64,000 nt of DNA from contig CAYPYS010000002.1 of NCBI GenBank assembly GCA_964415355.1, forward strand, positions 8,048 to 72,047, in the 5' to 3' direction. The stretch is from an uncultured Planctomycetia bacterium (lineage in GTDB: Bacteria > Omnitrophota > Gorgyraeia > Gorgyraeales > Gorgyraeaceae). A program made the translations under genes and the position numbers. This document shows, piece by piece, positions 1 through 55,370 of the stretch. The stretch's first letter is position 1, and every line of letters starts with the position of its first letter. Below the pieces are notes generated by a model that saw only the letters and a list, made by a program, of their open reading frames with translations, had not been told where the DNA came from and did no database searches.

Positions 1-86
1 TTTTAACGGGCGCAGGCCTGGACAGAAAAGAGATAGAAGAGGTCTTTAAGAATTCTGAAAAGTTGGTGCGCCGTCTCCAGCCCTAA
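1..86 (+). CDS. 3' end of an upstream gene (partial; ...EKLVRRLQP*). Stop TAA at 84-86 lies inside repeat copy 1
   Basis: open frame running into window start; stop embedded in palindromic element. Confidence 0.3.
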   Translation, partial: LTGAGLDRKEIEEVFKNSEKLVRRLQP

Positions 87-127
87 GTTTACATTTTAAC
101 AATGTTAAAATGTAAACTTAGGGCTGG
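77..127. repeat. palindromic intergenic element copy 1 (51-bp perfect-palindrome variant ccagccctaagtttacattttaacaatgttaaaatgtaaacttagggctgg)
   Basis: read directly; self-complementary. Confidence 0.85.
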
Positions 128-2395: not shown

Positions 2396-2436
2396 CCTAA
2401 CTTTACATTTCAACAACGTTAAAATGTAAAGTTAGA
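2396..2436. repeat. palindromic intergenic element copy 2
   Basis: gcctaactttacatttcaacaacgttaaaatgtaaagttagac. Confidence 0.85.
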
Positions 2437-3083: not shown

Positions 3084-3124
3084 CTTAAGTATACATTTCA
3101 ACAATGTTAAAATGTATACTTAAG
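3084..3124. repeat. palindromic intergenic element copy 3 (gtatac variant)
   Basis: cttaagtatacatttcaacaatgttaaaatgtatacttaag; identical core to the copy at 34325. Confidence 0.8.
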
Positions 3125-5876: not shown

Positions 5877-7973
5877 ATGTCGGGCACTGGTTATAAAATC
5901 ATGACAAAGAAAAAAGCAATTTTAACAACTTTCCTTTCAATAATGCTTCTCTTGATAGCGCGGCCGTCTTTTGCCCGTAATCTCACCATTGTCTTTACAG
6001 GCGATACGCGCGGGGAAATAGAGAATTGCCATTGCCCTAAAGAAGATTATGGCGGACTGCCCAGAAGGGCCAAGTATATAGACGAGGTCAAGGAAGAGGT
6101 GGGAGATCTATTGCTCCTTGATACAGGGGATGTCTTGCAGCTTTACGCGTCGGATCTCGAAAAGAAGGATACCCTGCATAAGGCAGTTATATCTTTTAAG
6201 GCAATGGATATGATGAACTATTCTGTCATGAATGTAGGCGAAAGCGACTTTGTCTTGGGAGAAGATTTTTTAAGCGAGAGAGAATCAGTTGTTTCTTTTC
6301 CGTTTATCTCAGCCAACATAGTAGACAAAAATACAAAAGAGCTCTTTTTTGAGCCATATTTTGTAAAAGAAATGGAAAATGGCCTTAAGGTGGGAGTGAT
6401 CGGTCTTGTGAATGAGCGGTATGTAGTTAATTCGGATAAGCTGTCCATAATTCCGCATAAAGATGCAATTGACAGGTTCTTGCCGGAGCTAAAGGCCAGG
6501 TCAGACATAGTTATTGCCCTGGCTCATCTGGGATTGCCGTATTCTATAGAGCTTGCAAATTACACCAAAGACATCGATGTTATACTTAGCGGGCACTGGG
6601 ACGCAAATAGCCAGGAACCCATGAAGGTAAACAACTCGTTGGTTATGCCCACGACTTATCATTCGAGGAAGATAGGCAGGCTTAATCTTGAGGTCGGGAG
6701 AAAAGGCGTTTACTCTTATAGATGGGAGTCTACGCCGCTCGACGAAGATTATGACGGAAATACTATTTTTGAAGAGCTTATCGCTACAATGCCAGACTTA
6801 GGAGGCATAGAAGAGAAAAATGTTTTAGGCGGAAGCGAGACGTTTAATGGGACGCCTTTAAGGGTCTTTGTTTTTTATTCTCCTGGCTGCAGGGCATGCA
6901 TTGAGATAGAAAAAGACTTTTTGCCCGGGATCGAGGAAAAATATGGACCCCGGATAGCTCTGGAGCAGTATGACGTGAGCGTGTTAAAAAATTACGAACA
7001 GATGTTAAGGCTTGAGGAACTGTACGGGGTAGAGGAAGGCGGGTATGTCCCGGAGGTCATAGTTTCAGAATATGTTTTAATGGGTAAAGAAGATATAGTG
7101 GCTAATTTAGATGAGACAATACAGAAGGCCTTGATAGAGGCTAGTGAGTTAAAAAAAAACAATAAGGATTCAAAGGTAGAAGCAGTCGAGTATCAGTTGC
7201 CCACCGGTTCTCTTGTTTTATCCAGATTTCAATCGTTTAGCTTGTTCGCCGTCATGATGGCTGGTTTGTTGGACGGCGTAAATCCATGCGCCTTTACCAC
7301 CATAGTATTTTTTATCTCATTTCTTTCTCTCGTAGGATATAAGAGGCGCGAGATGTTTGCCGCAGGCTCTTCTTTTACCGTCGCTGTATTTATAGCGTAC
7401 TTGTTGATCGGCCTGGGCATCTTTAGATTTTTAAGGTCATTGCAAGGTTTTGGCCACGTGATTTATGCTATAAATATATTCATAGGCGGTTCGGCTTTTA
7501 TTCTCGGCATATTGAGTCTGGTGGATTATTTCAAATTCAAAAAAACCAAGGATCCCAAAAGTATCATATTGAAGCTACCGCAGTCTATCAAGAACAAGAT
7601 ACATTCGGTCATAGGCTCTGATTTCAGGCCAGGTCGGAAATCAGGCAAGAGAACGCTGTTGGGTATAGTATGGATCGCGTTTACAGCAGGTTTTATGGTT
7701 TCTGTGTTGGAATCCTTTTGTACTGGGCAGGTATATTTACCCACAATAGCCTTTGTGCTCAAAATGCCGGATAAAAAGACCCCAGCCTTTATATATCTGA
7801 TTCTTTACAATCTCGCTTTTATCGTGCCTCTTATAGTGGTTTTCTTTTTAGGGTTTTTTGGCGCCACTTCAAAGGCCTTTTCAAAATTCATGGAAAGACG
7901 TCTTGGCGCTGTTAAGCTTTGCACGGCCGCACTGTTTTTCCTGCTCGCCTCCGCCCTAATACTCTTCCGTTAA
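5877..7973 (+). CDS. fusion protein: N-terminal periplasmic domain(s) (metallophosphoesterase/thioredoxin-like) plus C-terminal DsbD/CcdA-type transmembrane domain
   Basis: LLDGVNPCAF motif typical of CcdA/DsbD TM region; about 9 C-terminal TM helices; alternative start ATG 5901. Confidence 0.45.
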   Translation: MSGTGYKIMTKKKAILTTFLSIMLLLIARPSFARNLTIVFTGDTRGEIENCHCPKEDYGGLPRRAKYIDEVKEEVGDLLLLDTGDVLQLYASDLEKKDTLHKAVISFKAMDMMNYSVMNVGESDFVLGEDFLSERESVVSFPFISANIVDKNTKELFFEPYFVKEMENGLKVGVIGLVNERYVVNSDKLSIIPHKDAIDRFLPELKARSDIVIALAHLGLPYSIELANYTKDIDVILSGHWDANSQEPMKVNNSLVMPTTYHSRKIGRLNLEVGRKGVYSYRWESTPLDEDYDGNTIFEELIATMPDLGGIEEKNVLGGSETFNGTPLRVFVFYSPGCRACIEIEKDFLPGIEEKYGPRIALEQYDVSVLKNYEQMLRLEELYGVEEGGYVPEVIVSEYVLMGKEDIVANLDETIQKALIEASELKKNNKDSKVEAVEYQLPTGSLVLSRFQSFSLFAVMMAGLLDGVNPCAFTTIVFFISFLSLVGYKRREMFAAGSSFTVAVFIAYLLIGLGIFRFLRSLQGFGHVIYAINIFIGGSAFILGILSLVDYFKFKKTKDPKSIILKLPQSIKNKIHSVIGSDFRPGRKSGKRTLLGIVWIAFTAGFMVSVLESFCTGQVYLPTIAFVLKMPDKKTPAFIYLILYNLAFIVPLIVVFFLGFFGATSKAFSKFMERRLGAVKLCTAALFFLLASALILFR

Positions 7974-8008
7974 CTTTACATTTCAACAACGTTAAAGTGT
8001 AAAGTTAA
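7971..8008. repeat. palindromic intergenic element copy 4 (contains stop TAA of the upstream gene)
   Basis: taactttacatttcaacaacgttaaagtgtaaagttaag. Confidence 0.85.
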
Positions 8009-9617: not shown

Positions 9618-10049
9618 ATGAAGAAGAAAAAAAAGAAGAAGGCCAGGAGACCCGTTAAGAGAAAAAAGAAGCCGGCTAAAAAGACAAAGAAGCGCAGGGT
9701 AGTTAAGAAGGCAAAGAAAAAGTCCATTAAAAGAAAGAAATCGACCAAGGCCAAGAAAAAAGTAGCCAGAAAGACTGTTTTGCCTCCGGGCGCATCGCTG
9801 GAAGAGATAGGGGTCGTGACTCATTATTTTTCTCATGTCGAGGCCGCTGTTATTAAAATGACCAGAGGTTCGCTTTCTCAGGGAGACACAATCGTTATTA
9901 AGGGGCACACGACTGATTTTAAGGAAAAGATAAACTCTATGCAGCTGGATCACGCGCCAATATCAAATGCAGTCGCGGGTCAGGAGATAGGCCTAAAGGT
10001 CAAGGCAAAGGTCAGAGAGCACGACACCGTCTATAAACTTATAGTCTAA
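9618..10049 (+). CDS. lysine-rich histone H1-like protein with C-terminal beta-barrel (EF-Tu domain-2-like) domain
   Basis: RBS gagagggggtgg; (K/R)-rich 60-aa N-terminus; the ORF-track start at 9573 is unlikely. Confidence 0.45.
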   Translation: MKKKKKKKARRPVKRKKKPAKKTKKRRVVKKAKKKSIKRKKSTKAKKKVARKTVLPPGASLEEIGVVTHYFSHVEAAVIKMTRGSLSQGDTIVIKGHTTDFKEKINSMQLDHAPISNAVAGQEIGLKVKAKVREHDTVYKLIV

Positions 10050-10119
10050 CTTTACACCCCGCTTTACTTCCTTAAGGACTCGCGGGGCATGCTTTAACGT
10101 TGTTGAAATGTAAAGTTAG
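10047..10119. repeat. palindromic intergenic element copy 6 interrupted by a 35-bp hairpin insertion (10057-10091)
   Basis: taactttaca [ccccgc...gcggggcatg] ctttaacgttgttgaaatgtaaagttag. Confidence 0.75.
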
Positions 10120-17169: not shown

Positions 17170-17206
17170 TAACTTTACACTTTAACGTTGTTGAAATGTA
17201 AAGTTA
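17170..17206. repeat. palindromic intergenic element copy 9
   Basis: ctaactttacactttaacgttgttgaaatgtaaagtta. Confidence 0.85.
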
Positions 17207-18705: not shown

Positions 18706-18914
18706 CGTCGGCTTTTCATCGCTCGGTAACCCAGCCACCTTATTACTTCTGATCGCCTAACTAACCCTTTGAAATATAATAGGTTACGGCTTATCACTAG
18801 TAACTTAGGTCTGTTGGCTTTGCGCCCCCTGATTTCTCTAGGGTTCGCCCTTATCGGCTACTATAAGTTTATCATAGATTAGAGGTGTTTTCAAGCCATA
18901 CGAGGAGGAGATGA

Positions 18915-20000: not shown

Positions 20001-20037
20001 TAACTTTACACTTTAACGTTGTTGAAATGTAAAGTTA
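20001..20037. repeat. palindromic intergenic element copy 10
   Basis: taactttacactttaacgttgttgaaatgtaaagtta. Confidence 0.85.
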
Positions 20038-22003: not shown

Positions 22004-22044
22004 CCTAAGTTTACACTTTAACGTTGTTGAAATGTAAAGTTAGG
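22004..22044. repeat. palindromic intergenic element copy 11
   Basis: cctaagtttacactttaacgttgttgaaatgtaaagttagg. Confidence 0.85.
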
Positions 22045-23815: not shown

Positions 23816-24877
23816 ATGGAATTAAAGACGTTATTAAAAGGCATGATTGAAAAAAAAGCGTCTGACCTGGTTATTAAGGCGGGCAGTCCGGCATGCATGA
23901 GGATCAATGGGTCTCTTTTTAAGGACGGGGCTGAACTGACAGATAAGTGCGTTAGCGGATTGGTCGATGAGATACAAAAAAGAAGCGGGCTTAATACTTT
24001 AAAAGAGAAAAGCGAATCAGTCCTATCTTTTGGCGTGGAGGATATGGGAAGATTCAGGACTACTGTTTTTAGAGAGAAGGGTAGTTTTGTAATTGTGGTG
24101 CGGGCCGTAAATACCGCTATCCCCACATTCGCGGATTTGAATCTTCCGGCAAAGGTGCTAGAGAGGCTGTGTACTGAAAAGCGCGGCCTGGTCTTGATCA
24201 CCGGCACGACTGGAAGCGGAAAATCCACCAGCGTGGCCAGTATGCTGGAATACATAAATAAAAACATGGCTCGCCACATAATAACGCTTGAGGATCCGAT
24301 CGAATTTATGTTTGAGGATAAGAAATCTATCGTGACCCAGAGAGAAATCAGGGTAGATACAAATAGTTTCCAGAGTGCGCTCGAATTCATAATGCTGCAG
24401 ACGCCTGACACGATATTTATAGGAGACATAAGAAATTCAGAGGTCATGTCAACGGCCCTAACGGCTGCAGAGACAGGGCAGCTGGTAATAGCGAACCTGC
24501 ACACGATAAATACTACTCACACCATAGAGAGGATCGTTAATTTTTTCCAGCCGCACCAGCATGCAGAGATCAGGATGCAGCTCTCTCTATTGTTAAAGGG
24601 CATTTTGTCGCTGAGATTAATGCCTCTTCTGGATGGCAGCGGTCGGGTTCCGGCTTGTGAGGTCCTTATATCAACGCCTACTATAGTGGAGTTGATCAGG
24701 GAAGGAAAGATCGACGAAATAGAATATTATATCAAAGACGGGGGCCTTTATGGCATGCAGACCTTTGACCATGCCTTGCTTAGCCTGTACAAGGAAAAGA
24801 AGATATCGGAAGAGACGGCCCTGGCTTACGCAGACAGAAGAAATGAACTCATAATGAACATAAAAGAACTAAGCTAA
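23816..24877 (+). CDS. pilT: type IV pilus retraction ATPase
   Basis: Walker A GTTGSGKST; PilT-family length and motifs. Confidence 0.8.
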   Translation: MELKTLLKGMIEKKASDLVIKAGSPACMRINGSLFKDGAELTDKCVSGLVDEIQKRSGLNTLKEKSESVLSFGVEDMGRFRTTVFREKGSFVIVVRAVNTAIPTFADLNLPAKVLERLCTEKRGLVLITGTTGSGKSTSVASMLEYINKNMARHIITLEDPIEFMFEDKKSIVTQREIRVDTNSFQSALEFIMLQTPDTIFIGDIRNSEVMSTALTAAETGQLVIANLHTINTTHTIERIVNFFQPHQHAEIRMQLSLLLKGILSLRLMPLLDGSGRVPACEVLISTPTIVELIREGKIDEIEYYIKDGGLYGMQTFDHALLSLYKEKKISEETALAYADRRNELIMNIKELS

Positions 24878-24912
24878 CTTTACATTTCAACAACGTTAAA
24901 ATGTAAAGTTAG
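24875..24912. repeat. palindromic intergenic element copy 12 (contains pilT stop TAA)
   Basis: taactttacatttcaacaacgttaaaatgtaaagttagg. Confidence 0.85.
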
Positions 24913-28031: not shown

Positions 28032-29012
28032 ATGGAGTACTCAATGGCAGAAGGTTTTTATAATTTTCATTCTATAGCGTATGGGATATTAAAGATATTC
28101 TTTTTGCTCGCTATAGGATTTGCGCTTTATACGAAAAAGATCGTAAAAAAAGATTCTCTGGAGGGCCTTAGCAATATATTGATCTGGGCGTGTATTCCTG
28201 CCTTGATCTTTACTAAAATAACGTCTGCGTTTGATCCTTTTTCGTTTCCGAAATGGTGGATCTTACCCCTAAGCTCGATGATCATGGCTTTTACAGGCAT
28301 GGGCATCGGGTATTTATTCCAAAAGCCATTAAAGGGTTTTAAGTCGGGTCGGGAATTTATGATGTCCTGCGCATTCCAGAACTCAGGGTATCTGCCCATG
28401 GCCCTTGTGGCCTTTGTCTGCACAGGCCCGTTCTGCGACAAGGTCCTTGTTTATATATTTCTCTTTCTTATGGGATTTAATATACTTATATGGTCGTTCG
28501 GCCCCGCGTTTCTTTCGAAAAATTTCAGGGGAGATTTTAAGCTCAGCGCTATTTTAAATCCGCCTGTCACAGTTACCATCTTTTCGATCTCATGGGTTTT
28601 TTTAATGGGTAAAGGCAGCGTCCATGATCTAGTTTTTGATCCGTTGGTTATGCTGGGTAATTCGAGTTTTCCTCTGGCGTTGATAGTGCTTGGTGCGCAG
28701 CTCGCAGCTTATCGTGGATTTAAGGCTGAGAACTGGAGCGCATTGGCAAGCTGTTTGTCCGCTAAGCTTATAGCATTGCCTATTATAGCGCTTGGCCTGG
28801 TCAGGTATCTGCCGCTGCCGTACGCCTTGAAGTTTTTTATTTTTTTAGAGGCTACAATGCCTGCAGCCGTAAGTCTCGTTGTGATAGGGCAATATGTCAA
28901 CGCTGACAATAGATTTTTAAGCGGCATTATAGTATATTCGCACTTGCTCGCCGTCATAACTATACCTGCGTGGCTATTGATATTCCGCCTGACCGTTAAC
29001 TTTACGTTTTAA
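28032..29012 (+). CDS. polytopic membrane protein, probably auxin-efflux-carrier (AEC) family transporter; last 5 codons encoded by the repeat arm
   Basis: about 10 TM helices, about 320 aa; C-terminal ...NFTF* from taactttacgttttaa. Confidence 0.4.
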   Translation: MEYSMAEGFYNFHSIAYGILKIFFLLAIGFALYTKKIVKKDSLEGLSNILIWACIPALIFTKITSAFDPFSFPKWWILPLSSMIMAFTGMGIGYLFQKPLKGFKSGREFMMSCAFQNSGYLPMALVAFVCTGPFCDKVLVYIFLFLMGFNILIWSFGPAFLSKNFRGDFKLSAILNPPVTVTIFSISWVFLMGKGSVHDLVFDPLVMLGNSSFPLALIVLGAQLAAYRGFKAENWSALASCLSAKLIALPIIALGLVRYLPLPYALKFFIFLEATMPAAVSLVVIGQYVNADNRFLSGIIVYSHLLAVITIPAWLLIFRLTVNFTF

Positions 29013-29192
29013 CACAAGTTACTCTCTCCGCTCGTAACTTGTTTCAAAGGGGTTTCACCCCTATGACGCTACGCAATGCTCCTCTGCGTCGCATTGCTCC
29101 ATTGTTACCCCTCGAGGGGATGCAGGCATTCCCTCGAGCTCCCCAGTTGCATGGAATTAAAATTCCATGCAATGTTGAAGTGTAAAGTTAGG
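28997..29192. mobile_element. expanded (about 196-bp) structured variant of the palindromic element (MITE-like), copy E1
   Basis: repeat arms at both ends; internal hairpins caagttac/gtaacttg, ggggtttcacccc, gcaatgc/gcattgc, ccctcgag x2, gttgcatggaatt..aattccatgcaa; about 90% identical to copy E2. Confidence 0.7.
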
Positions 29193-29225
29193 CTTTTATT
29201 GACTATTCGCACAAAAAGGTGTAAA

Positions 29226-29777
29226 ATGAATATAATGGATAATAAAGGTATATTGAAACTTTCAATAATGGTCTTGTTTGCCTTGCTTATAGGCACGTAT
29301 GTCATAGGATATTTTATGTATAAAGATTATAGTGAAAAAACCGCGTATTTAAATGACCAGGCCCAGCTTGCCACGGATAGATTTAAGGAGATGGAAGACG
29401 GCATGAGGGATATTGATGTTGTCTTGTCGAACGCGACAGACGAGAACAAGATAGAGATAAGAAAGATGTTGTCACAGTTGGATTCGATGCAGGGGATCCT
29501 TAAAGATTGGGAAACGGAATACAATAAAACTGTTTCAGATCTCAAGGGTGAGATCAGCGATTTAAAAGTCAGCAGGCTCAGGAGGAGAATGGAAAAGCTG
29601 CAGGATGAGATAGATGGTTTCAAGATGGCGATGCAGGATTGGGACCTGAAGATATACGATGACAACAGGGCGTTGACCTATAAAGAAGGCATTGAAGGCG
29701 TGGACCTCGGCAAGATCTCGGTTAAAAAAAAGAGTGACGGCAAGAGAGAGCAGGAACGAGAGACCAAGAAAAAGTAA
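29226..29777 (+). CDS. membrane-anchored coiled-coil protein (unknown)
   Basis: TM helix then heptad-rich region; the upstream portion of the ORF-track call lies in element E1. Confidence 0.4.
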   Translation: MNIMDNKGILKLSIMVLFALLIGTYVIGYFMYKDYSEKTAYLNDQAQLATDRFKEMEDGMRDIDVVLSNATDENKIEIRKMLSQLDSMQGILKDWETEYNKTVSDLKGEISDLKVSRLRRRMEKLQDEIDGFKMAMQDWDLKIYDDNRALTYKEGIEGVDLGKISVKKKSDGKREQERETKKK

Positions 29778-31388: not shown

Positions 31389-31428
31389 CCTAAGTTTACA
31401 CTTTAACGTTGTTGAAATGTAAAGTTAA
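31389..31428. repeat. palindromic intergenic element copy 15
   Basis: cctaagtttacactttaacgttgttgaaatgtaaagttaacg. Confidence 0.85.
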
Positions 31429-34451: not shown

Positions 34452-34545
34452 GCTCCGTAAAAGGGCAACTTATCTGAAAGGGTAAGGCGCAAAGCCAGGT
34501 GCCTAAAGCCGCATGAAGCGGACAAGGTCGACCAGCTGCCGTAGA
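34452..34545 (+). promoter_or_regulatory. c-di-GMP-I (GEMM) riboswitch aptamer no. 2
   Basis: GGGCAACUUAUCUGAAAGGGUAAGGCGCAAAGCCAGGUGCCUAAAGCCGC matches the GEMM core; GNRA hairpin. Confidence 0.7.
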
Positions 34546-35290: not shown

Positions 35291-35329
35291 TAACTTTACA
35301 ATTTAACGTTGTTGAAATGTAAAGTTAGG
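35291..35329. repeat. palindromic intergenic element copy 18
   Basis: taactttacaatttaacgttgttgaaatgtaaagttaggc. Confidence 0.85.
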
Positions 35330-36401: not shown

Positions 36402-36441
36402 CCTAAGTTTACACTTTAACGTTGTTGAAATGTAAAGTTAG
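36402..36441. repeat. palindromic intergenic element copy 19
   Basis: gcctaagtttacactttaacgttgttgaaatgtaaagttag. Confidence 0.85.
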
Positions 36442-38758: not shown

Positions 38759-38956
38759 CCTAAGTTTACAATATAACACAAGTTACTCGCTTCGCTCGTA
38801 ACTTGTTTCAAAGGGGTTTTACCCCTATGACGCTACGCAATGTTTCTTTTCGTCACATTGCTCCACTGTTACCCCTCGAGGGACTGCCTGCAGCCCCTCG
38901 AGCTCCCCAGTTGCATGGAATTTTAATTCCATGCAATGTTGAAATGTAAAGTTAGC
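38759..38956. mobile_element. expanded (about 196-bp) structured variant of the palindromic element (MITE-like), copy E2
   Basis: collinear with E1; compensatory change gcaatgt/acattgc vs gcaatgc/gcattgc. Confidence 0.7.
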
Positions 38957-39144
38957 ACATAATCCCCCTCCTTGAAAGTAAGCGCTTTCTATGGTATACT
39001 AATAATATAAAAGATCATCCACATTCTTTCGGAAATAGTTGTTTTTGTTTCTGACATATCTAAGACAGAGTTAAGTTTTATTTAATATTTTTAGAGAAAA
39101 AATAATACAAAAGGTCGCTTTTTCTTAAGGGAGGTTTTTTCTCT

Positions 39145-41368: not shown

Positions 41369-41410
41369 CCTAACTTTACATTTCAACAACGTTAAAGTGT
41401 AAAGTTAGGC
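41369..41410. repeat. palindromic intergenic element copy 21
   Basis: cctaactttacatttcaacaacgttaaagtgtaaagttaggc. Confidence 0.85.
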
Positions 41411-42537: not shown

Positions 42538-43002
42538 ATGAAAAGAATCGTGCTTTTAGCTTTTGGTTTGGTTTTAATTGTTGCTGCGACAGCAATGGCT
42601 ATTCAACTGCCCGGTGTCGAGAACATTAAGGAAGATATGCCCGTTGGAGCTAAAAAGATCGCAGAGTCTTTTTCCAAGGCAGTGCTGGATAGGATTAGCG
42701 ACAAAACAGGGGTCCTTGAAAAAGATATCGAGGCGTATTTTCTTAGTATGGCCGTGATATTGATAAACGGAGGATTGGAGGTTAAAGAAGCAGAAGAGGT
42801 AATTGATAGGTCACTGCCTCTATATGAGACTTTTCTTGCAGAGATCATGGATGGAAACAAGCCAGATCCTTATATAAATACTTATATTGACAGGGTCCAG
42901 AAATTACTCAAAGAGTTTGGTTTTAGCAATGACGATACAACCAAGCTACTCATTCTTATAAAAAACCATTTCTTTAAACTATGGGAATCTATCGGTAGGT
43001 GA
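42538..43002 (+). CDS. secreted hypothetical protein
   Basis: signal peptide AMA-IQ. Confidence 0.4.
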   Translation: MKRIVLLAFGLVLIVAATAMAIQLPGVENIKEDMPVGAKKIAESFSKAVLDRISDKTGVLEKDIEAYFLSMAVILINGGLEVKEAEEVIDRSLPLYETFLAEIMDGNKPDPYINTYIDRVQKLLKEFGFSNDDTTKLLILIKNHFFKLWESIGR

Positions 43003-43028
43003 TAAGGTGTAAACTTAAGTGAGTAAAT

Positions 43029-44992: not shown

Positions 44993-45018
44993 GGATTCCG
45001 AAGACAGCTATAAGATAT

Positions 45019-45444
45019 ATGAGAATCAGGGTATTTTTGTTATTGGCTATGGTTTTGTTTTTGAAAAACCCGGCCTTGGCTGAAGCTGGCGTGGGAGAAA
45101 AGCTGGCCGGCGTGACCATTAAAAGCACGGTTAAGGTATATGTAGCAATAACAAACATTGAAAAGACAAAGAAGAAGATCGTTGATAAGATACAAAAAAC
45201 AGATAAAAAAGAATTCAGGGAACGATATGCCAAGCTTTATGAGCTGGTAAAGGATTTGCCTTCGGATATAAAGACTACTTACAGGATCACCCCTGGCATG
45301 ACCATGGAGCAGATGGTTGAAAATGTAAGATCAGTAGATAAGAAGGCGGTATATAAAATAATAAATAGCATGTCCGATAGAACTGTTACAGAGCTTTTTA
45401 AGCAATATCTTAAGGAGATGGGCAAAAAATCCAAAAAAATGTAA
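45019..45444 (+). CDS. secreted hypothetical protein
   Basis: signal peptide ALA-EA. Confidence 0.4.
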   Translation: MRIRVFLLLAMVLFLKNPALAEAGVGEKLAGVTIKSTVKVYVAITNIEKTKKKIVDKIQKTDKKEFRERYAKLYELVKDLPSDIKTTYRITPGMTMEQMVENVRSVDKKAVYKIINSMSDRTVTELFKQYLKEMGKKSKKM

Positions 45445-45470
45445 ACTATGATTACAATTAAATGCGGAAA

Positions 45471-45510
45471 GTAAAACCTTCACGGCGAAAGCTGTGAGGG
45501 TTTTTTATTT
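45471..45510 (+). terminator. terminator cassette copy 1 (ccttcacggc gaaa gctgtgaggg plus T-run)
   Basis: hairpin with G-U wobbles plus tttttt; near-identical copies at 45972 and (minus strand) 55371. Confidence 0.6.
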
Positions 45511-45567
45511 TTGACCCCGTCGCCATAAATCCTGAGATATTGGCCGATTGGTGATCCCTGCGACTTA

Positions 45568-45596
45568 TTGACTATTTTGAAGACAGGGTGTAGAAT
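45568..45596 (+). promoter_or_regulatory. promoter TTGACT-17-TAGAAT (promoter cassette copy A, 45523-45617)
   Basis: about 95-bp block nearly identical to 47284-47387. Confidence 0.6.
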
Positions 45597-45617
45597 GAAA
45601 TTAAGTGGGAGGTGCAT

Positions 45618-45890
45618 ATGGACTGGAAGATATTTTTGGCAACGTTTAGCGCTATATTTCTTGCAGAACTTGCAGATAAGACACAGTTTGTTGGTATTGG
45701 CATGTCAGCGAAGTCAGGGAAACCTTTATCGGTTTGGCTTGGCTCTATATCCGCGTATATCATTGTTACTGCTATCACGGTTTTGATCGGAGCTACTCTA
45801 GGAAAGTACATAAAACCCGAGATCGTAAGATATACTGGCGCATCGCTATTTGTAATAATCGGAATTTTGATGTTTTTCGGGAAAATATGA
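45618..45890 (+). CDS. UPF0016 (GDT1/TMEM165) family membrane protein, single-repeat form
   Basis: ELADKTQ motif; 3 TM helices; ATG 45618 after GGGAGG. Confidence 0.6.
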   Translation: MDWKIFLATFSAIFLAELADKTQFVGIGMSAKSGKPLSVWLGSISAYIIVTAITVLIGATLGKYIKPEIVRYTGASLFVIIGILMFFGKI

Positions 45891-45971
45891 AACCTTGACA
45901 AACCTGTGATCCCGATGTAAACTATGACTACAATTAAATAATGTCCCGTGTTTGAAGGATGAAATCCCGGA

Positions 45972-46012
45972 CAATAATAAAGTAAAACCTTCACGGCGAA
46001 AGCTGTGAGGGT
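45972..46012 (+). terminator. terminator cassette copy 2
   Basis: same hairpin plus T-run as 45471-45510, preceded by the same gtaaactatgaYtacaattaaat block. Confidence 0.6.
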
Positions 46013-46038
46013 TTTTTGTTTTATATAACTCCGTGCTA

Positions 46039-46139
46039 TTACCTAACAAATATATTAGAAGTACTGTTTGTTAGGTAACTTTCCTTATTGACATTTGTTA
46101 CCTAACAATGTATACTATTTAATAGAGTGTTAGGTAACA
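46039..46139 (+). promoter_or_regulatory. operator array: four TTACCTAACAA half-sites forming two inverted-repeat pairs overlapping promoter TTGACA(46088)-17-TATACT(46111)
   Basis: 46039-46050/46067-46078 and 46097-46108/46128-46139 read directly. Confidence 0.55.
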
Positions 46140-46151
46140 AGGGGGTGCAAT

Positions 46152-46469
46152 ATGGGCGTTATAAAAGGAGCCTTGAAAGAAGAGCTTGAAAATTCTCTGC
46201 GCATGAAGAAGGAATATGAAAAGGCCTTAAAGGAGCTTCCGGATGGATGCTTGGCCGAAAAGAAGATACGCGGCCATAAATATTATTATTTAGTCAAAAG
46301 GTTCCATAAGAAGGTCAAATATATCTATAAAGGTAAGCTTTTAAAGGAAGAGGTCGCTAAATACAACGACGCTAAGATCCTAAGGGCTAAATACAGAAAA
46401 TTGCTGTCGCAGGTTAAAAAGCAGATAAGGTTTTTAAGGAGTAGTCTACGTGGAAAAGAATCAATATAA
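46152..46469 (+). CDS. small basic hypothetical protein (candidate regulator/antitoxin of the downstream nucleotidyltransferase)
   Basis: overlaps downstream gene by 20 nt; strongly regulated promoter. Confidence 0.35.
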   Translation: MGVIKGALKEELENSLRMKKEYEKALKELPDGCLAEKKIRGHKYYYLVKRFHKKVKYIYKGKLLKEEVAKYNDAKILRAKYRKLLSQVKKQIRFLRSSLRGKESI

Positions 46470-47124
46470 ACTATGCCTCGAGGTCCTCAAGCGGTTTAAT
46501 AAAGCAGGTATTCTGGACGGATTCATTTTGATAGGCAGCTGGTGCCTGTATTTTTACAAGGCCTATTTCAAGAAAACCCCATATATAGATGTTTCTACGC
46601 TTAGAACCAGGGATATAGATTTTTTAATACCTATTCCGCCAAAGATTAGGAAAAGCGTTGATGTGCCAGAGCTACTCAAGGATCTTGGATTTGTGACGGA
46701 TTTTAAAGGAAGCAGAGGCTACATAAAGCTCGATCACCCTGACCTTATATTGGAATTTTTAGTACCGGAAAAAGGCAGAGGGGATGACAGGCCTTACAGG
46801 TTGCCACAATTAGGTATGAACGCTACGTCATTAAGGTTTCTAAGTTTTTTAATGGATAACGTTATCCGAATCAAGGTAGAAGATTTTTATATCAATGTAC
46901 CGCATCCCGCGAATTTCGCATTGCATAAACTTATTATTTTTCAGAGGAGAACAAAGGAGTATAAGGTTTTAAAAGATAAAAATACAGCTATTGGAGTTCT
47001 AAGGGCATTGCTCGATAAAGGCGAAGGCCATATAATCAAAAAGACACTGGGATCTGTTCCTCAGAAGTGGAAGAAAAAGATTATCAAAGGATTGGAGGGA
47101 GAGAAAGCGCTTCATATTTTCTAA
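46450..47124 (+). CDS. nucleotidyltransferase-fold protein (AbiEii/MNT-like GS...RxxDIDF motif)
   Basis: LIGSW...TLRTRDIDFLIP. Confidence 0.4.
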   Translation: MEKNQYKLCLEVLKRFNKAGILDGFILIGSWCLYFYKAYFKKTPYIDVSTLRTRDIDFLIPIPPKIRKSVDVPELLKDLGFVTDFKGSRGYIKLDHPDLILEFLVPEKGRGDDRPYRLPQLGMNATSLRFLSFLMDNVIRIKVEDFYINVPHPANFALHKLIIFQRRTKEYKVLKDKNTAIGVLRALLDKGEGHIIKKTLGSVPQKWKKKIIKGLEGEKALHIF

Positions 47125-47220
47125 TCTCATCTCAGTCGTACGTTCGAAGGGGTTCACTGCGACTCTAAACAATTAAAACCTTCTTTTGTCAACCGTACCA
47201 CCAAACAAAAGGAGGTTTTA

Positions 47221-47322
47221 ATGCTTATAGCCAAGGTTTTCCGACTTATCCTGATAACCATAATCTTCATAATAGCTTACCTTCCGATCACTATAAATCC
47301 TGAGATATTGGCCGATTGGTGA
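47221..47322 (+). CDS. 33-aa hydrophobic peptide (MLIAKVFRLILITIIFIIAYLPITINPEILADW), type I toxin-like or leader peptide
   Basis: RBS AGGAGG sequestered in hairpin aaaaccttcttttg..caaaaggaggtttt; paralogue on minus strand at 54869-55030. Confidence 0.35.
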   Translation: MLIAKVFRLILITIIFIIAYLPITINPEILADW

Positions 47323-47335
47323 TCCCTGTGACTTA

Positions 47336-47364
47336 TTGACTATTTTAGAGGATGAGGGTAGAAT
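47336..47364 (+). promoter_or_regulatory. promoter TTGACT-17-TAGAAT (promoter cassette copy B, 47284-47387)
   Basis: near-identical to copy A. Confidence 0.6.
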
Positions 47365-47372
47365 GAAATTAA

Positions 47373-48161
47373 ATGGGCAGCGCATATATGAATAAGAAAC
47401 CATTAAGCAAGATGACTCAAGATGAAATAAAAGAGGCAGTTAAAGAAAAATACAGCAAAGTGGCAAAAGAACCCTGCGTTTCGTTTAACTTCCCGGTAGG
47501 AAAGGCTTTTGCTTTAAAAGTAGGTTATCCTAAAGATATACTTGGCAGACTTCCTCGATCCATGTATGAATCCTTTACAGGCGCCAATAATCCTCAACCT
47601 TTTGTGGAGTTAAAAGAGGGAGAAACAGTCTTAGATTTAGGGTGTGGGGCAGGATTAGACCTTTATTTTTATGCAAAAGCAGTAGGAACTAATGGTAAGG
47701 TCTATGGCTTAGATATTTCGCAAGATATGATCAGTAAGGCAAGAGATAATATGGAAGCAGCAGGAGTTAAGAATGCAGAAATTAAATGCGGCCACTCCGA
47801 TAGCCTTCCTTTTGAAGATAATTTTTTTGATATTGTAGCCTCAAATGGAATCTATAATCTATCACCTAACAAAGAAAAAGTTATGAAAGAAGTATTCAGG
47901 GTATTGAAGCCCGGAGGTAGAACTGTTTTTAGTGAAGTTGTTCTAAAAGACAGCCTCCCGGAAAGCATAAAAAAGAATATTGATGACTGGTTTCGGTGTA
48001 TAGGTGGCGCATTGCCTGAAAGAGATTTTTTAGCACTTATGGAAAAGGTTGGATTTAGGAATATAGAGGTTATATCAAAAGTCAGGAATGCCAGAACAGG
48101 TCATAAGTTAGCCATTTGTGCCAACATCCGCGGTTATAAGGGAGGAGTTTTAAATGGATAA
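47373..48161 (+). CDS. ArsM-like class I SAM-dependent methyltransferase
   Basis: VLDLGCGAGLD motif I; DIVASNGIYNLSPNKEKVMKEVFRVLKPGGR matches the ArsM/UbiE-like core, but the GCGNP Cys motif is replaced (TGANNP); alternative start 47388. Confidence 0.55.
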   Translation: MGSAYMNKKPLSKMTQDEIKEAVKEKYSKVAKEPCVSFNFPVGKAFALKVGYPKDILGRLPRSMYESFTGANNPQPFVELKEGETVLDLGCGAGLDLYFYAKAVGTNGKVYGLDISQDMISKARDNMEAAGVKNAEIKCGHSDSLPFEDNFFDIVASNGIYNLSPNKEKVMKEVFRVLKPGGRTVFSEVVLKDSLPESIKKNIDDWFRCIGGALPERDFLALMEKVGFRNIEVISKVRNARTGHKLAICANIRGYKGGVLNG

Positions 48162-48489
48162 GCTTGCAGGAGAAGCGCTTAAATTGGTTGATATGGTGGA
48201 TTATCAAGCTGGGTCTGTGGTGAGCAAGCAGATAATAAAGAAAGACACAGGAACAGTGACTTTGTTTGCCTTTGATAAGGGACAGGGGTTGAGTGAACAT
48301 ACGGTGCCGTTTGACGCCCTGGTTTATATTTTTGACGGTGAGGCAGAGATCACTATAGATGGCAGGCCTAACTTAGTAGGGTCAGGCAATATGATAATCA
48401 TGCCGGCTAATAAACCGCATTCTGTAAAAGCAGCAAAGCGGTTCAAGATGCTTCTTGTAATGATAAAGGAAAAGAACTTAGGTATCTAA
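48154..48489 (+). CDS. cupin-domain protein
   Basis: G(X)5HXH-like EHTVPFDALVYIFDGEA...PANKPHS pattern. Confidence 0.55.
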   Translation: MDKLAGEALKLVDMVDYQAGSVVSKQIIKKDTGTVTLFAFDKGQGLSEHTVPFDALVYIFDGEAEITIDGRPNLVGSGNMIIMPANKPHSVKAAKRFKMLLVMIKEKNLGI

Positions 48490-48881
48490 TGAAAAGACTG
48501 ATAGTATTAATGATAATATTATTATCTATATTTGGATTTTTATTATTTAATAGCAAGGCGCTTCTGATCTACAGGGTAACTGAAGTCAGAGAAGGGGATG
48601 TTCATACGTCGCGCAAGGTGTTCTTTGATTGGGAGACGTTTTTGGATTACCTGAAAGATATTCCTGATAGAGTCATGGGGAGAGTTTTTTTAAAGGGCGT
48701 CAAAGCATCCGGAGATATTAAATTGACCGACAGGGAGCAGGAAAGCATTGGAGAGATAATAAAAGACGTGGGAGTATTGACAGATAAAATAGAAGATAAG
48801 GAAATCGCTGAAGAGATAAATAAGTTGATGGAGAATTACAAGGGCCTGGATGGCCTGATGGAAGAACTTGAACAAAAATAA
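48489..48881 (+). CDS. membrane-anchored hypothetical protein
   Basis: N-terminal TM helix. Confidence 0.35.
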   Translation: MKRLIVLMIILLSIFGFLLFNSKALLIYRVTEVREGDVHTSRKVFFDWETFLDYLKDIPDRVMGRVFLKGVKASGDIKLTDREQESIGEIIKDVGVLTDKIEDKEIAEEINKLMENYKGLDGLMEELEQK

Positions 48882-49422
48882 CAAACGAAGATCAGCTAGG
48901 GGTATCATGAATAAGAAAGGAAATAGCTCTATTATGTTTATATCTACGGTTATCATGGGAATATTGGCTGTGGTGTTGTTATTAGTAGCTTATTATAAAG
49001 GCGTGCATATGACAGGGCTGAATCAGGCCATGCGCATGACCATGCAGATATTGCCTTTGCTTATCTTTGCCTTTATAGTGGCAGGCATGGCGCAGGCGCT
49101 TTTGCCTCACGAGACCATATCCAGATGGATAGGTGAGGAGTCAGGTATGAAGGGCGTATTGATCGGGACAGTGGCCGGGGCAATGACACCTGGCGGGCCG
49201 TATTTGAGTTTACCGATAGTCGCGGGGCTTTTGAAGTCCGGCGCGAGCATAGGCGTGATGGTGGCGTATATTGCCGGCTGGAGTCTTTTGAATATCAGCA
49301 GATTGCCTATGGAGATAGGTATACTCGGGTGGAGATTTACTTTGGTGAGATTTTTGAGCGTTTTAATACTTCCGCCCATAGCCGGGGCCTTCGCGCATTA
49401 TATCAGCAAGGTTTTGAGATAG
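48868..49422 (+). CDS. DUF318-type permease subunit (half-size membrane permease)
   Basis: multi-TM; TPGGPY motif. Confidence 0.45.
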   Translation: MNKNNKRRSARGIMNKKGNSSIMFISTVIMGILAVVLLLVAYYKGVHMTGLNQAMRMTMQILPLLIFAFIVAGMAQALLPHETISRWIGEESGMKGVLIGTVAGAMTPGGPYLSLPIVAGLLKSGASIGVMVAYIAGWSLLNISRLPMEIGILGWRFTLVRFLSVLILPPIAGAFAHYISKVLR

Positions 49423-49916
49423 ACAGATCGTCATTGCGAGATCAATTGCATTGATCCTGCCAGAGTAACTAATAAAGCAAAAGATTAGTATATAGGGGGA
49501 GATTAAGGTTTGCGTAGAGGGTTTTAGCCATATAAACTTGGTTTCTTTATGATTAAGCCTAACCGCCTATAATGTATCTTATGTTAACTTGGTTATATGA
49601 GAAGAAAAGCCATAAGTCTATATGGCTCAATGAGTTGCGTATTTTTGTTAATTGTCTGTGAATAACTCTTTTTCTTCTTTGGTTGGTATATTGCTTGTCA
49701 TTCCCGCTTACACGGGAATCTTAATAGGTAGGTTATTATTACGCGTGTTTTGGCTTATTATAGCCCTTTATAGACCAGATTATTACTAGGTATAGCCTAA
49801 TTACTGCTTCTCCCCCGCTTGTCATCCTCGCGAAAGCGGGGATCCATTAGAAGCTATATTTTTACCCCTTATAAACCCATCGACCCCTAAAAACCAGTAG
49901 TCGATATAAACCTATA

Positions 49917-50453
49917 TTAATCTAATATCAGACGAAATGATTTTGTTCTCTCAAAAACAGTATTCCTTAGCTCCCTATGAACTCTTTGCAAAATTGGCAA
50001 TAGTCTAATTCTTCTAAAGTTATCCCAATCGTCAAATGTTCGATAATCATTATTAAAAACCATATTGTTTAATTCAGATTGCAATTGGGCGATTAAATCT
50101 ACTATCTCTGTACCATAATACAATCCCATCAGACCAAGCTGTAAATAGCTTTCTCTCGTAGCTCTATTAAAATTATCCAAAGAGACTTGTCTTCTTTGGA
50201 TAATTTCAGGATTATTGTTAGTTATGCTACCCTGTTGTATCTGTAGATTAATATTGGCAAGTTCCCACATCGAAATCAACATGAGACACAGACTATTCAA
50301 AATGTTTGTAGCTGTGTTATCCTTAGCAATAAGGTATTTAGTCTTTATGTCTCTTTCAAAGTGAAATTTGGCAATTTGTATAGTAGTGTAAGCAACAATA
50401 ATAGGCGATATAAGGCCGAATACTATTGTTTTAATAATTGCATCGGAAAACAT
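49917..50453 (-). CDS. hypothetical protein with N-terminal TM helix
   Basis: no recognisable motifs. Confidence 0.35.
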   Translation of the reverse strand: MFSDAIIKTIVFGLISPIIVAYTTIQIAKFHFERDIKTKYLIAKDNTATNILNSLCLMLISMWELANINLQIQQGSITNNNPEIIQRRQVSLDNFNRATRESYLQLGLMGLYYGTEIVDLIAQLQSELNNMVFNNDYRTFDDWDNFRRIRLLPILQRVHRELRNTVFERTKSFRLILD

Positions 50454-50571
50454 AATATCCCTACCAATCCTTTTTTAAATACTTATAGTGTTTGTAATAC
50501 TACCTAACAACCCCGCCCCTATCAACCTCTTCCTTGCTGTAAGCTGTGCTAAAATAAGACACTGCTATCGA

Positions 50572-51420
50572 TCACGCTTTAATATTACTGACCTCCCGAA
50601 CAAGTCTAATCCCAGTATACATTCTATCTAAGAATTGTCTTTCTAGTTTCATTTTCTCATACCTATTCCTTGGATGATGGGAAAGATTACGTACTCCTTT
50701 GTAAGATATTAAATCATTGCATAGCGTAACATCAAAATACTTCTTTTGCTTCTTTCGAGCACCGCCTTTATTCCTCCAATTAGGAGCCGATAACAGCTTA
50801 ATTTTTGTTTCAAAATTGTAATTTTGCACCTCTCCAATTGTCGGCACTATTTTTTTTGCCCTTGCCGCTGCTTCCGCTAATGTATCCACTAATCCTTCTA
50901 TTAGCTCAGTTATATCTCTAATCGCATCGATAAAGTTACCTTCGTTGAATTTTTCGCAAATCTTAACAATGTCTTTCCTGTATCTGCCCGGACGATGCAT
51001 CTCTGCTTCTCCGATTCTCATATTGCATTGCACGGCATTGCGATGCACGATAACGTTATTATCACACACCAATAAGATGCCTAAGCCATATTTCTTGGCT
51101 AACGTTAAAAAGCTATGAGAAAAAGAAGTTTCCTTATCATCTGTAGAATGAGGAAAGGCCAAAAATATTTCAATTCTTTCTTGGTTGATCAAGCATTCCT
51201 TAACAAAAGTCTCAAAATATTCTTGTAATTGTGGTTTTTCTTGTATTTCTATAACTAATACTGCTGAGCCGCGTTTATGACACACTAACGCTGGTTTGAA
51301 TTGATATTGGGGAGCAAGTGGTTTTTCGAATGAAATTCTTCTATAGGTTTTCTTTTCATAATATTTAATGAGCGTCTTAGCAATAGACCAAAGATTCTCG
51401 CTTAAAAATTGAAATTTCAT
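50572..51420 (-). CDS. hypothetical protein (unknown; co-operonic with ParB-like gene)
   Basis: 3-nt gap to upstream gene. Confidence 0.4.
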   Translation of the reverse strand: MKFQFLSENLWSIAKTLIKYYEKKTYRRISFEKPLAPQYQFKPALVCHKRGSAVLVIEIQEKPQLQEYFETFVKECLINQERIEIFLAFPHSTDDKETSFSHSFLTLAKKYGLGILLVCDNNVIVHRNAVQCNMRIGEAEMHRPGRYRKDIVKICEKFNEGNFIDAIRDITELIEGLVDTLAEAAARAKKIVPTIGEVQNYNFETKIKLLSAPNWRNKGGARKKQKKYFDVTLCNDLISYKGVRNLSHHPRNRYEKMKLERQFLDRMYTGIRLVREVSNIKA

Positions 51421-51422
51421 AA

Positions 51423-52364
51423 TTAAATAATTTTAGTTATAATCTTATATAATTCTTTCAGCTTATTTGCAACTTCTTTGTCTTCTTTGATCTTGCTGTC
51501 CATCCTTTTTAATTTATTAACTAGAGACTCTATTTCTTTTTTTAAATTCCTTTCTTGGTAAGCATCGGCGACAGATTCATTGTAAGCATCTTCTATCCTA
51601 TATTTTGGATTGTTTATTAACTTTTTAATTATAGGGATTGCTTTTTTACTTGGAACGCCTGCTTTCTCAGAACGAGCTATTTTGCTAACATCTCTTAATT
51701 TAACAATGTTAGATATTACACCATCTTTATACTTTTTAAAAAATCTTTGCATTATTTTTTCTTTAGAGTTACTTTCTAAAACTTCGGGCATATATCTTTC
51801 TATTGCCCTGCTTGCTTTCATGGCCTCCAAAAAGAAATCCTCCGAAAATTTTTGTTCTGCCTTGGGTTTTGAAAGCTCTTTTCTTAATAGATTTAAATAT
51901 TTCGTGGGCAAACTTAGTATATCAAAAGCTCTTTTTGCAGTTGCGGGAGTAATGCCTGTTACCGCTGTTATGTCTTTCAAAGAATAAGGCTTATTTTCTT
52001 TTTTTAATAAATTCTCTATTTCTTTAAGTTTCAGTGCTGTTGCAAACAAGTCCCATTGAACACGAACATTATGTATATTGAACATTCTTAAAATATTCTC
52101 TAGCCTAGTTGGCCTTGGTTCAATTATGGTAGGAACGCGAGATAAATTTAACTTCTTAGCACACAACCAGCGCCTTTCCCCATCAAGTAATATATACCTA
52201 TTACTTTTAACATCTTCATAAATAGCTAAAGGAACTCTAATGCCTACTTTTTGTATAGAATTTAATAGGACTTGGAGCTCTTCTTCTCTAAAAATTATAC
52301 GTGGATTATCTGGATTTCTCTTGATTTTGTCTGGATTAATATTGGCTAATCTGGTTCCTGACAT
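51423..52364 (-). CDS. ParB/Srx-fold (ParB-like nuclease domain) protein
   Basis: NPDNPR...LLNSIQKVG...RYILLDGERRWLCAKKL...VP ParB N-terminal signature. Confidence 0.6.
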   Translation of the reverse strand: MSGTRLANINPDKIKRNPDNPRIIFREEELQVLLNSIQKVGIRVPLAIYEDVKSNRYILLDGERRWLCAKKLNLSRVPTIIEPRPTRLENILRMFNIHNVRVQWDLFATALKLKEIENLLKKENKPYSLKDITAVTGITPATAKRAFDILSLPTKYLNLLRKELSKPKAEQKFSEDFFLEAMKASRAIERYMPEVLESNSKEKIMQRFFKKYKDGVISNIVKLRDVSKIARSEKAGVPSKKAIPIIKKLINNPKYRIEDAYNESVADAYQERNLKKEIESLVNKLKRMDSKIKEDKEVANKLKELYKIITKII

Positions 52365-52384
52365 AACCTGTCTCCTTATTTAAT

Positions 52385-53191: not shown

Positions 53192-53242
53192 TTTTGTTTT
53201 TTTAGTCTATTTTTAAAATAAATAGAGCTATGGTTCCGTCTG

Positions 53243-54852: not shown

Positions 54853-54868
54853 TTTACACCTCCTTAGG

Positions 54869-55030
54869 TTAATAGTCAATAGCGCTGACTATATTATCTA
54901 ATTCTATATAATAGGACATACTATCTCTTGGGTTTCTTTCAAATGTTTTTGGATTTATTGTTATAGGCAGGTAGGTGATTATAAAGATAGCTGTTATTAG
55001 GATGCTTTTAATAAACTTGGTTAGAAACAC
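54869..55030 (-). CDS. 53-aa hydrophobic peptide (VFLTKFIKSILITAIFIITYLPITINPKTF...), paralogue of 47221-47322
   Basis: GTG start after AGGAGG inside hairpin aaaaccttctttac..gtaaaggaggtttt; shares LIT-IIFII-YLPITINP. Confidence 0.3.
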   Translation of the reverse strand: MFLTKFIKSILITAIFIITYLPITINPKTFERNPRDSMSYYIELDNIVSAIDY

Positions 55031-55346: not shown

Positions 55347-55370
55347 TGCAATCCACCTCCTTTCTCAAAA

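Follow-up and report, generated by a model that had tools for sequence, protein, structure and literature searches.

Two places in the 64,000-nt stretch of DNA analysed here (the window, from contig CAYPYS010000002.1 of an uncultured bacterium of the Omnitrophota lineage, GenBank assembly GCA_964415355.1) carry an expanded version of a short palindrome, raising the question whether such a version is one element, of which the short copies are remnants, or a short palindrome that something else has entered. The original prediction held the former, and proposed either a transcribed structured RNA or a miniature inverted-repeat transposable element (MITE). Our analysis indicates that each expanded copy is probably made up of two unrelated repeats, one nested in the other: a 37-nt palindrome resembling repetitive extragenic palindromes (REPs), enclosing a distinct mobile element of ~157 nt. 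This inner element, referred to as the core, is best read as a non-coding mobile element with five hairpins, GC-richer than its hosts and integrated exactly at the apex of the palindrome. The earlier reading of the locus as repeat or mobile DNA was right.

The two composites (copies A and B) are 194 nt long each, with ends within 2 nt of those predicted, and align without gaps at 89% identity; a repeat finder grouped them as a single 195-nt family, likewise at 89% identity. As had been described from the sequence, palindrome arms (TAACTTTACr... on the left and ...GTTGAArTGTAAAGTTA on the right) enclose a central core, amounting to a net insertion of 157 nt. The composites and the promoter-like boxes next to them are:

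28997..29190, + strand: composite copy A (37-nt palindrome arms plus nested core)
28997..29013, + strand: left arm of copy A, TAACTTTACGTTTTAAC, somewhat degenerate
29015..29172, + strand: core of copy A, CAAGTTAC...CCATGCAA, 158 nt as delimited; 187.7 bits with the covariance model
29174..29190, + strand: right arm of copy A, GTTGAAGTGTAAAGTTA
29199..29227, + strand: promoter-like box TTGACT-17-TAAAAT of the downstream gene, outside the element, 9 nt past copy A
38761..38954, + strand: composite copy B; site empty in a relative with a 90% identical RlmN
38761..38777, + strand: left arm of copy B, TAAGTTTACAATATAAC, degenerate
38779..38936, + strand: core of copy B, 158 nt; 192.2 bits with the covariance model
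38938..38954, + strand: right arm of copy B, GTTGAAATGTAAAGTTA
38972..39000, + strand: promoter-like box TTGAAA-17-TATACT, outside the element, 18 nt past copy B; kept in the relative that has no element

The core of copy A has 51% GC against 43% in its host, and its junction is ambiguous over the dinucleotide CA. Ten metagenome contigs from the same population carried both copies in a form identical to that of the window, and thus added no variation.

Two further copies of the core were found elsewhere, as the original prediction had anticipated. Copy C, obtained in a metagenome scan, is located at 1447-1644 of contig L016 (whole-genome shotgun project JACKQG01, another metagenome), upstream of a tRNA-Met gene; it has canonical arms of the R type (defined below) and the same arm/core junctions as copies A and B. 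Copy D was retrieved with a profile of the element's six-frame translations, which was searched against a collection of 5.8 billion proteins and returned one protein, P0138, encoded on contig L024 (NCBI PNNS01000849.1, 2517 nt, 35% GC, or 34% outside the element). At this site (L024 323-484) the core has no palindrome arms at all: its 162 nt form 54 stop-free codons, in frame within an open reading frame (ORF) for a PpiC-rotamase/FGE-sulfatase protein, in the linker before the rotamase domain. Homologues of P0138 at 54% and 47% identity are ~50-58 residues shorter exactly at this position. Sequence identities were 89.2% (A-B), 88.3% (B-C) and 88.4% (C-D), and 83-89% overall, with copies inside one genome being no more alike than copies from different organisms. 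The core has thereby been seen in at least three genomic backgrounds, its GC content being 49-54% against 43%, 45% and 34% in the hosts.

The junctions of A, B and C are identical, reading AACA/CAAGTTAC ... CCATGCAA/TGTTGAA (slashes marking the boundaries). Deletion of 157 nt from these armed copies (with the boundary ambiguous over CA) leaves AAC-AAT-GTT, and hence a canonical 37-mer, which fits precise insertion into a pre-existing palindrome; AAT apexes are also present among the ordinary short palindromes. All 12 arm positions compared in the reconstructed empty site of copy D, ACTCAAC-AA-GTTAAAGAAC, agree with TTTCAAC-AAC-GTTAAAG, the central part of an F-type palindrome, and the core always lies within the motif yAAC-N2-3-GTTrAA. 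Because copy D is without arms and occupies a look-alike of the palindrome centre, the core is separable from the palindrome and targets its centre. Two observations, the armless copy D and the 37-mer restored upon removal of 157 nt, speak against the proposal that the 194-bp form is the full-length one, with the 38-bp copies as its arms-only derivatives.

Neither a covariance model of the four copies nor a search by motif and covariance model for individual core hairpins as independent mini-repeats revealed anything beyond these four in the 148 kb of sequence examined. A blastn search with the element matched none of 72,556 plasmids and 50,697 phage records, and no fragment of a known insertion sequence (IS) emerged from it. 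IMG/VR scans for the core and for the 37-mer yielded nothing, GTDB representative genomes scanned with the hairpin-5 pattern gave four unrelated hairpins only (which makes it probable that the species is missing from that set), and Rfam contained no matching family (best match E = 0.45, at 16 bits against a threshold of 80). Homologues of the gene flanking copy C, sought in order to locate an orthologous tRNA-Met locus, reached at best 55% identity, at a locus without elements. A small protein in the open +1 frame was rejected, as copies A and B differ by 9 amino-acid changes against 2 synonymous ones (by inspection). This frame is open in A, B and D, carries indels and an early stop in C, and has no ribosome-binding site.

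Relatives were compared at both window loci, and the empty site that the original prediction had suggested seeking was found at locus B. There, relative L023 (RlmN 90% identical) has homologous flanks, namely the 3′ end of rlmN and a TTGAAA...TATAAT promoter region, and lacks the whole element; relative to L023 the window has ~225 extra nt, together with an altered RlmN C-terminus and stop codon. At locus A, relative L017 (RlmN 86% identical) has the left arm followed by ~40 unrelated nt and no core, and no core was found anywhere in the 17.5 kb of L017. In this relative many of the short palindromes stand at the corresponding junctions with almost no change. With orthologous sites lacking it, the core does not qualify as a conserved gene specific to a locus. 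The ends TAA.../...TTA are themselves palindromic, and one comparison of a filled and an empty site with L017 is compatible with a TTA/TA duplication, albeit an inexact one.

The outer element is an imperfect palindrome of 37 nt with the consensus TAACTTTACAyTTyAAC-NNN-GTTrAArTGTAAAGTTA. Allowing at most three mismatches, the window contained 17 matches against none in 100 shuffles; beyond these 17 there are two compensated TAAGTATACA...TGTATACTTA variants, one 72-nt variant and one half copy. The first 45 kb of the window hold 22 copies and the adjoining 10 kb to the left seven more, all of them intergenic, at a frequency of about one per 2 kb, so that many of the gene junctions in this genome are occupied by a copy. 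Orientations are balanced, with 10 F copies (AACAAyGTT centre) and 9 R copies (AACGTTGTT centre). Being a short imperfect palindrome, high in copy number, intergenic and present in both orientations, the 37-mer has the features by which REPs are recognised, and is a REP-like intergenic repeat distributed genome-wide. The copies outside the composites are:

84..120: short palindrome; flanks extend the palindrome by 7 nt
2398..2434: short palindrome, F
3086..3122: short palindrome, TAAGTATACA...TGTATACTTA variant with both arms changed together
7971..8007: short palindrome, F; the upstream gene ends on its TAA as stop codon
8851..8887: short palindrome, R; TAA is the stop codon
10047..10118: 72-nt variant of R type whose left arm has taken in an unrelated 35-nt hairpin; TAA is the stop codon
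12048..12084: short palindrome, R; TAA is the stop codon
14947..14983: short palindrome, F
17170..17206: short palindrome, R
20001..20037: short palindrome, R
22006..22042: short palindrome, R
24875..24911: short palindrome, F; TAA is the stop codon
27991..28027: short palindrome, F; TAA is the stop codon
31391..31427: short palindrome, R; orthologous copy retained in relative L017
32815..32851: short palindrome, F, AAT apex; TAA is the stop codon
34325..34361: short palindrome, TAAGTATACA variant
35291..35327: short palindrome, R
36404..36440: short palindrome, R
41371..41407: short palindrome, F
43001..43017: right-arm remnant of a short palindrome; full copy in relative L017
44666..44702: short palindrome, R; TAA is the stop codon; final copy ahead of a low-GC stretch

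The TAA of the palindrome is the stop codon of the upstream gene at eight junctions in the window and, in the left flank, at glyQ (L020 2724), and the ribosome-binding site and start of the next gene often follow within 4-15 nt, including between glyQ and glyS. This arrangement indicates that the palindrome is transcribed inside operons. Orthologous short palindromes are identical at ~35-36 of 37 nt (31391-31427 compared with L017 3354-3390, and 32815 with L017 4777), and their near-unchanged state in a relative with an 86% identical RlmN suggests selection or concerted evolution of the repeat. No hit of the PF01797 type, which would mark a REP-associated tyrosine transposase (RAYT), was found among the ORFs scanned within ~84 kb of the genome.

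Inserts of more than one kind have gathered in the palindromes: that of the 72-nt variant at 10047-10118 carries a CCCCGC...GCGGGG hairpin of its own and lies in the left arm, not at the apex. Decayed palindromes were also seen, in the form of the right-arm remnant at 43001-43017, a 3′-truncated copy (L026 2960-2989) and a copy whose loop is filled in and whose right arm is disrupted (L017 1003-1060). In two cases the flanks add 6-7 complementary bases to the palindrome (CCAGCCC...GGGCTGG around window 84-120 and CTCCCC...GGGGAG around L017 6418-6454), which gives the impression that the 37-mer itself inserted into an older, GC-rich hairpin at its loop.

The structure of the core bears on the question whether it acts as an RNA. 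RNA folding of the composites gave -82.2 (A) and -75.4 (B) kcal/mol, with z-scores of -8.2 and -8.8, and none of 200 shuffles folded as well. The complementary strand folded equally well (z -7.3), as did single-stranded DNA (z -7.7). Folded alone, each of the four cores formed the same five hairpins at ~-62 kcal/mol, which in copy A are:

29015..29041, + strand: hairpin 1, CAAGTTAC-11 nt-GTAACTTG; invariant in all four copies
29044..29066, + strand: hairpin 2, TCA.AGGGGT-TTC-ACCCCT.TGA; two covarying pairs, T-A to C-G
29073..29097, + strand: hairpin 3, GCAATGC-11 nt-GCATTGC; C-G becomes T-A in copy B and T.G in copy C
29111..29138, + strand: hairpin 4, CTCGAG GGGATGC-AG-GCATTCC CTCGAG; tip inverted relative to copy B
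29148..29171, + strand: hairpin 5, TGCATGGAATT-AA-AATTCCATGCA; C-G becomes T-A in copy D, and the loop is inverted relative to copy B

Covariation was assessed over an alignment of 158 columns and four copies, from which seven unpaired indel bases of C and D had been removed. Changes on both sides were present in 5 of 52 pairs, spread over four of the five hairpins, and 205 of the 208 pair cells (98.6%) were actually paired; one pair in hairpin 4 is A-T, C-G or G-C depending on the copy. The covariation score was matched by none of 500 shuffles, and sliding the structures by 1-3 columns left only 32-40% of cells paired. Variable columns made up 16 of 104 paired and 14 of 54 unpaired positions. 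The compensatory pair described earlier in hairpin 3 (gcaatgC..Gcattgc to gcaatgT..Acattgc) was read correctly, and the broader claim of hairpins kept by compensating changes was confirmed with the two further copies included. The count of five or more hairpins stood in part: five are real, while the two ccctcgag boxes belong to one hairpin and the gacgc..gcgtc stem is missing from the other copies. This last stem, which would form a pseudoknot with hairpin 3, was rejected, not being conserved in copies B, C and D.

The loops singled out in the original prediction (aa versus tt; tgcaggca versus tgcctgca) do differ between A and B, but as mutual reverse complements: both the hairpin-4 tip and the hairpin-5 loop of copy A are the reverse complements of those of copy B, and are thus inverted tips. 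Read as an inversion, the six differences in hairpin 4 come down to one flip and one compensated pair, and a mismatch in the hairpin-4 region that is G.T in copy A corresponds to A x C in B and C. Flipped tips point to palindrome dynamics at the DNA level, and are not expected of a conserved RNA. DNA palindromes can yield both flipped tips and paired changes by intrastrand templating, without selection on an RNA (quasipalindrome mutagenesis). Because both strands and single-stranded DNA fold alike and the tips are inverted, conservation of the structure is no proof of an RNA, and an RNA function is not required to explain the core. As a separate observation, hairpin 1 (29015-29041) shares a 6-bp stem, AAGTTA/TAACTT, with the outermost 6 bp of the palindrome in flipped order; AAGTTA also recurs in the repeat flanking copy D, which may reflect a shared recognition motif or coincidence.

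It nevertheless has to be weighed whether the core is a functional structured RNA that has spread only secondarily, either as a small RNA (sRNA) or as a processing or stability module of 3′ untranslated regions (3′UTRs), cut from read-through transcripts at the outer stem. We regard this as unlikely. Strong covariation in four hairpins would suit such a role, as would the sense orientation of all four copies relative to neighbouring transcription and the three one-sided changes that yield G-U pairs on the plus strand, although two of the latter fall in a weak 4-bp helix. The armed copies, moreover, lie in 3′UTRs just ahead of the next promoter, with copies A, B and C each 9-25 nt upstream of the promoter-like box of the next gene. 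The equal folding of both strands and of single-stranded DNA, the absence from orthologous loci, the in-frame position of one copy in a protein gene and the lack of an Rfam family argue against an RNA, and no promoter or terminator belonging to the element itself was found in the window copies examined. Tips that flip, and a mismatch found as G.T in one copy but as A x C in others, are likewise at odds with it, and compensating changes can generally arise from templated correction in DNA palindromes, with no selection on RNA.

A MITE would differ from the nested arrangement in making the 194-bp form full-length, its 17-nt arms terminal inverted repeats, and the 37-nt copies internally deleted derivatives that were later amplified. 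The inverted repeats at both ends, the identical arm/core junctions of three copies from two or more organisms, and the joint absence of arms and core from the relative at locus B, by which the composite may have come as one unit, agree with this model; we nonetheless hold it to be quite improbable. Terminal inverted repeats do not bound every copy, since copy D has none, and the target of copy D mimics the palindrome centre, as predicted by nesting and not by a MITE. Taking out 157 nt gives back a 37-mer of perfect length whose AAT apex is a normal one, there are ~15 short copies to each long one in 84 kb, the syntenic relative L017 has short copies and no core in 17.5 kb, and unrelated inserts are found in the palindrome as well. 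Integron attC sites were considered too, the long forms then being attC sites with a large variable terminal structure: several copies read GCCTAAC...GTTAGGC, resembling R″/R′ boxes, the elements abut stop codons and precede ribosome-binding sites, and the branched centre of the long forms recalls attC sites of the VCR type. This reading has next to no chance of being correct, and is essentially refuted by the mixed orientation (10 F, 9 R), by the housekeeping nature of flanking genes that are syntenic with a relative (glyQS, recO, rlmN, ppdK, a sigma factor) and by the absence of an integrase in 84 kb. Additionally, mismatches are symmetric without extrahelical bases, and one copy lies between glyQ and glyS.

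With nesting as the preferred explanation, known systems provide several points of comparison. IS1397 and ISKpn1 are mobile elements that enter the loops of enterobacterial palindromic units, much as the core enters the loop of a REP-type hairpin; unlike the core, they belong to the IS3 family, measure 1.4 kb, have a transposase and terminal inverted repeats, and make 3-4-bp duplications. Rickettsia palindromic elements (RPEs) reportedly go back to Ogata et al. 2000. They resemble the core in being palindrome-rich selfish repeats of ~100-160 bp without a known transposase that occur in non-coding DNA and also, in frame and stop-free, in a protein gene (PMC1166351). An in-frame insertion tolerated by its protein, as is characteristic of RPEs, is found in copy D, in the linker of P0138 that is shorter in homologues. 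Unlike RPEs, the core occurs in another host phylum with another sequence, has one coding insertion, a defined target motif and a position nested in another repeat, and was seen in low copy number (2 in 84 kb).

The closest documented behaviour is that of ISPpu9 and the orphan ssr9 modules. REPs are preferred IS targets (PMC1525189), and in Pseudomonas putida orphan ssr9 sRNA modules are mobilised into REPs by the IS110 transposase of ISPpu9, at one fixed REP position, with a dinucleotide common to both junctions and a target-like palindrome at the left end (PMC12288879). Like the core, ssr9 is a small non-coding module without terminal inverted repeats or a transposase of its own, placed at a fixed site of a REP-type palindrome present in many copies; both junctions could hold one and the same dinucleotide (AG in ssr9, CA in copies A-C of the core), and the left-end palindrome resembles the target. 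In contrast, no IS110-type (DEDD) recombinase is known from the hosts of the core or linked to any of its copies, the core is positioned at the hairpin apex whereas ssr9 lies between REP positions 9 and 10, and the core is not alignable with the A/B boxes, lacks guide-like loops for the target and has one copy in coding sequence. Palindrome-associated transposable elements (PATEs, derived from IS200/IS605) and REP/RAYT systems (PMC3333891, PMC2817692) share with the core the lack of terminal inverted repeats and the hairpins at both extremities. As for PATEs, there is no obvious target duplication in the armed copies and activity on single-stranded hairpin DNA is plausible; as in REP/RAYT systems, the 37-mer host repeat looks like a REP. 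The differences are that core hairpins 1 and 5 start at the very ends and are not subterminal, that copy D has an 11-nt flanking direct repeat, that no Y1 transposase or RAYT was seen among the scanned ORFs, and that the 37-mer is without the GTAG-type 5′ tetranucleotide of REPs.

These comparisons suggest how the core might move. It would be non-autonomous and mobilised in trans by a recombinase that is specific for a sequence or a structure and independent of terminal inverted repeats, for which the candidate classes are enzymes of the IS110/IS1111 type or HUH enzymes of the IS200/IS605 type acting on single-stranded hairpins; no terminal inverted repeats of the core were found. The hairpins could be what the recombinase reads, or merely self-maintaining DNA palindromes, and a composite, once nested, may travel along with its palindrome. 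Several points weigh against nesting by such a mobile core. None of the copies has a linked gene for a recombinase or transposase, nor did Pfam reveal one among the ~60 window ORFs scanned. With four copies in total, three of which share identical junctions, the composites could stem from one nesting event followed by movement of the composite, and locus B differs from the empty relative by ~225 nt instead of 194, so that it is not a single clean insertion. By inspection, the unpaired loops of the core are rich in C and T and lack complementarity to the AT-rich target, and are hence unlike a bridge RNA for this site. The label of the contig carrying copy D (a 'Flavobacterium sp.' metagenome-assembled genome) is unconfirmed. 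Finally, an 11-nt direct repeat, CAACAAGTTAA, stands on both sides of copy D and takes in the first 8 nt of the element, and hairpin 1 of this copy has one additional A; neither a simple 2-nt-core model nor an HUH model without duplication accounts cleanly for this combination. While CA is possible at both junctions in A-C, copy D shows the 11-nt repeat instead, and the AACA preceding the element in A-C precedes it in D only after a 2-nt boundary shift. No single boundary model (2-nt core, no duplication, or 8-11-nt duplication) was found to fit all four copies.

A more far-reaching proposal, to which we assign little probability, is that hairpin apexes are targeted by an undescribed class of mobile elements, of which the core would be the non-autonomous form, its own terminal hairpins pairing with or mimicking the target. 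In copy D, the hairpin 1 arm CAAGTTA and the final CAA of hairpin 5 either derive from the target by duplication or match it exactly. If this were true, the choice of site by nucleic-acid complementarity would represent a new programmable integration mechanism in candidate phyla, and the 37-nt palindrome would serve as a dedicated landing pad while also supplying stop codons across the genome.

As to the genomic setting, the closest named relatives of the window RlmN are from Omnitrophota, at 57-61% identity. The organism, an uncultured diderm encountered in many metagenomes, is probably a member of that phylum. Genes flanking the elements in the window are rlmN, a pseudouridine synthase gene, arfB, asmA and a pilT-like gene, the 10 kb to the left contain recO, glyQ, glyS, ppdK and a sigma-70 factor gene, and gene order is conserved in a relative. 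No palindrome copies are present at 45-64 kb of the window, a low-GC part with restriction-modification and ParB-like genes. This part (45000-64000) is probably an acquired island: GC content is 32-39% over 50-60 kb, gene direction is switched, and its genes include a BglII-like endonuclease with an N4/N6 methylase, a Dam-like methylase and a ParB-like protein. It also contains a 100-nt direct repeat (45520-45619 and 47288-47387, 86% identical) with a TTGACT...TAGAAT promoter-like box, and a GC-rich, terminator-like hairpin with a T-run that occurs three times (45468-45511, 45979-46022 and, on the - strand, 55372-55415). A window-wide Rfam scan gave only three c-di-GMP-I riboswitches, at 2491-2577 (+, 73 bits), 34454-34543 (+, 62.5 bits) and 18722-18859 (-, 54.4 bits), situated among genes of the GGDEF, PilZ, MshEN and HD-GYP types. 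Positions 3232-5781 encode an 849-aa protein with six PKD domains, whose coding repeats of 261-276 nt appear as tandem DNA repeats.

The core is a new family of selfish DNA of a known kind, and the REP-like palindrome enclosing it is another new family, both from a candidate phylum. What the locus offers is a natural example of repeat-in-repeat nesting in an uncultured phylum, and not a new RNA gene. For annotators it carries the caution that compensatory changes in palindromic DNA are, on their own, no evidence of a structured RNA. The core recognises the palindrome centre precisely enough to have entered a look-alike site in a protein gene of another organism and, if the responsible enzyme were found, the pair would provide a site-specific integration system with a defined 15-nt target and a 157-nt cargo.

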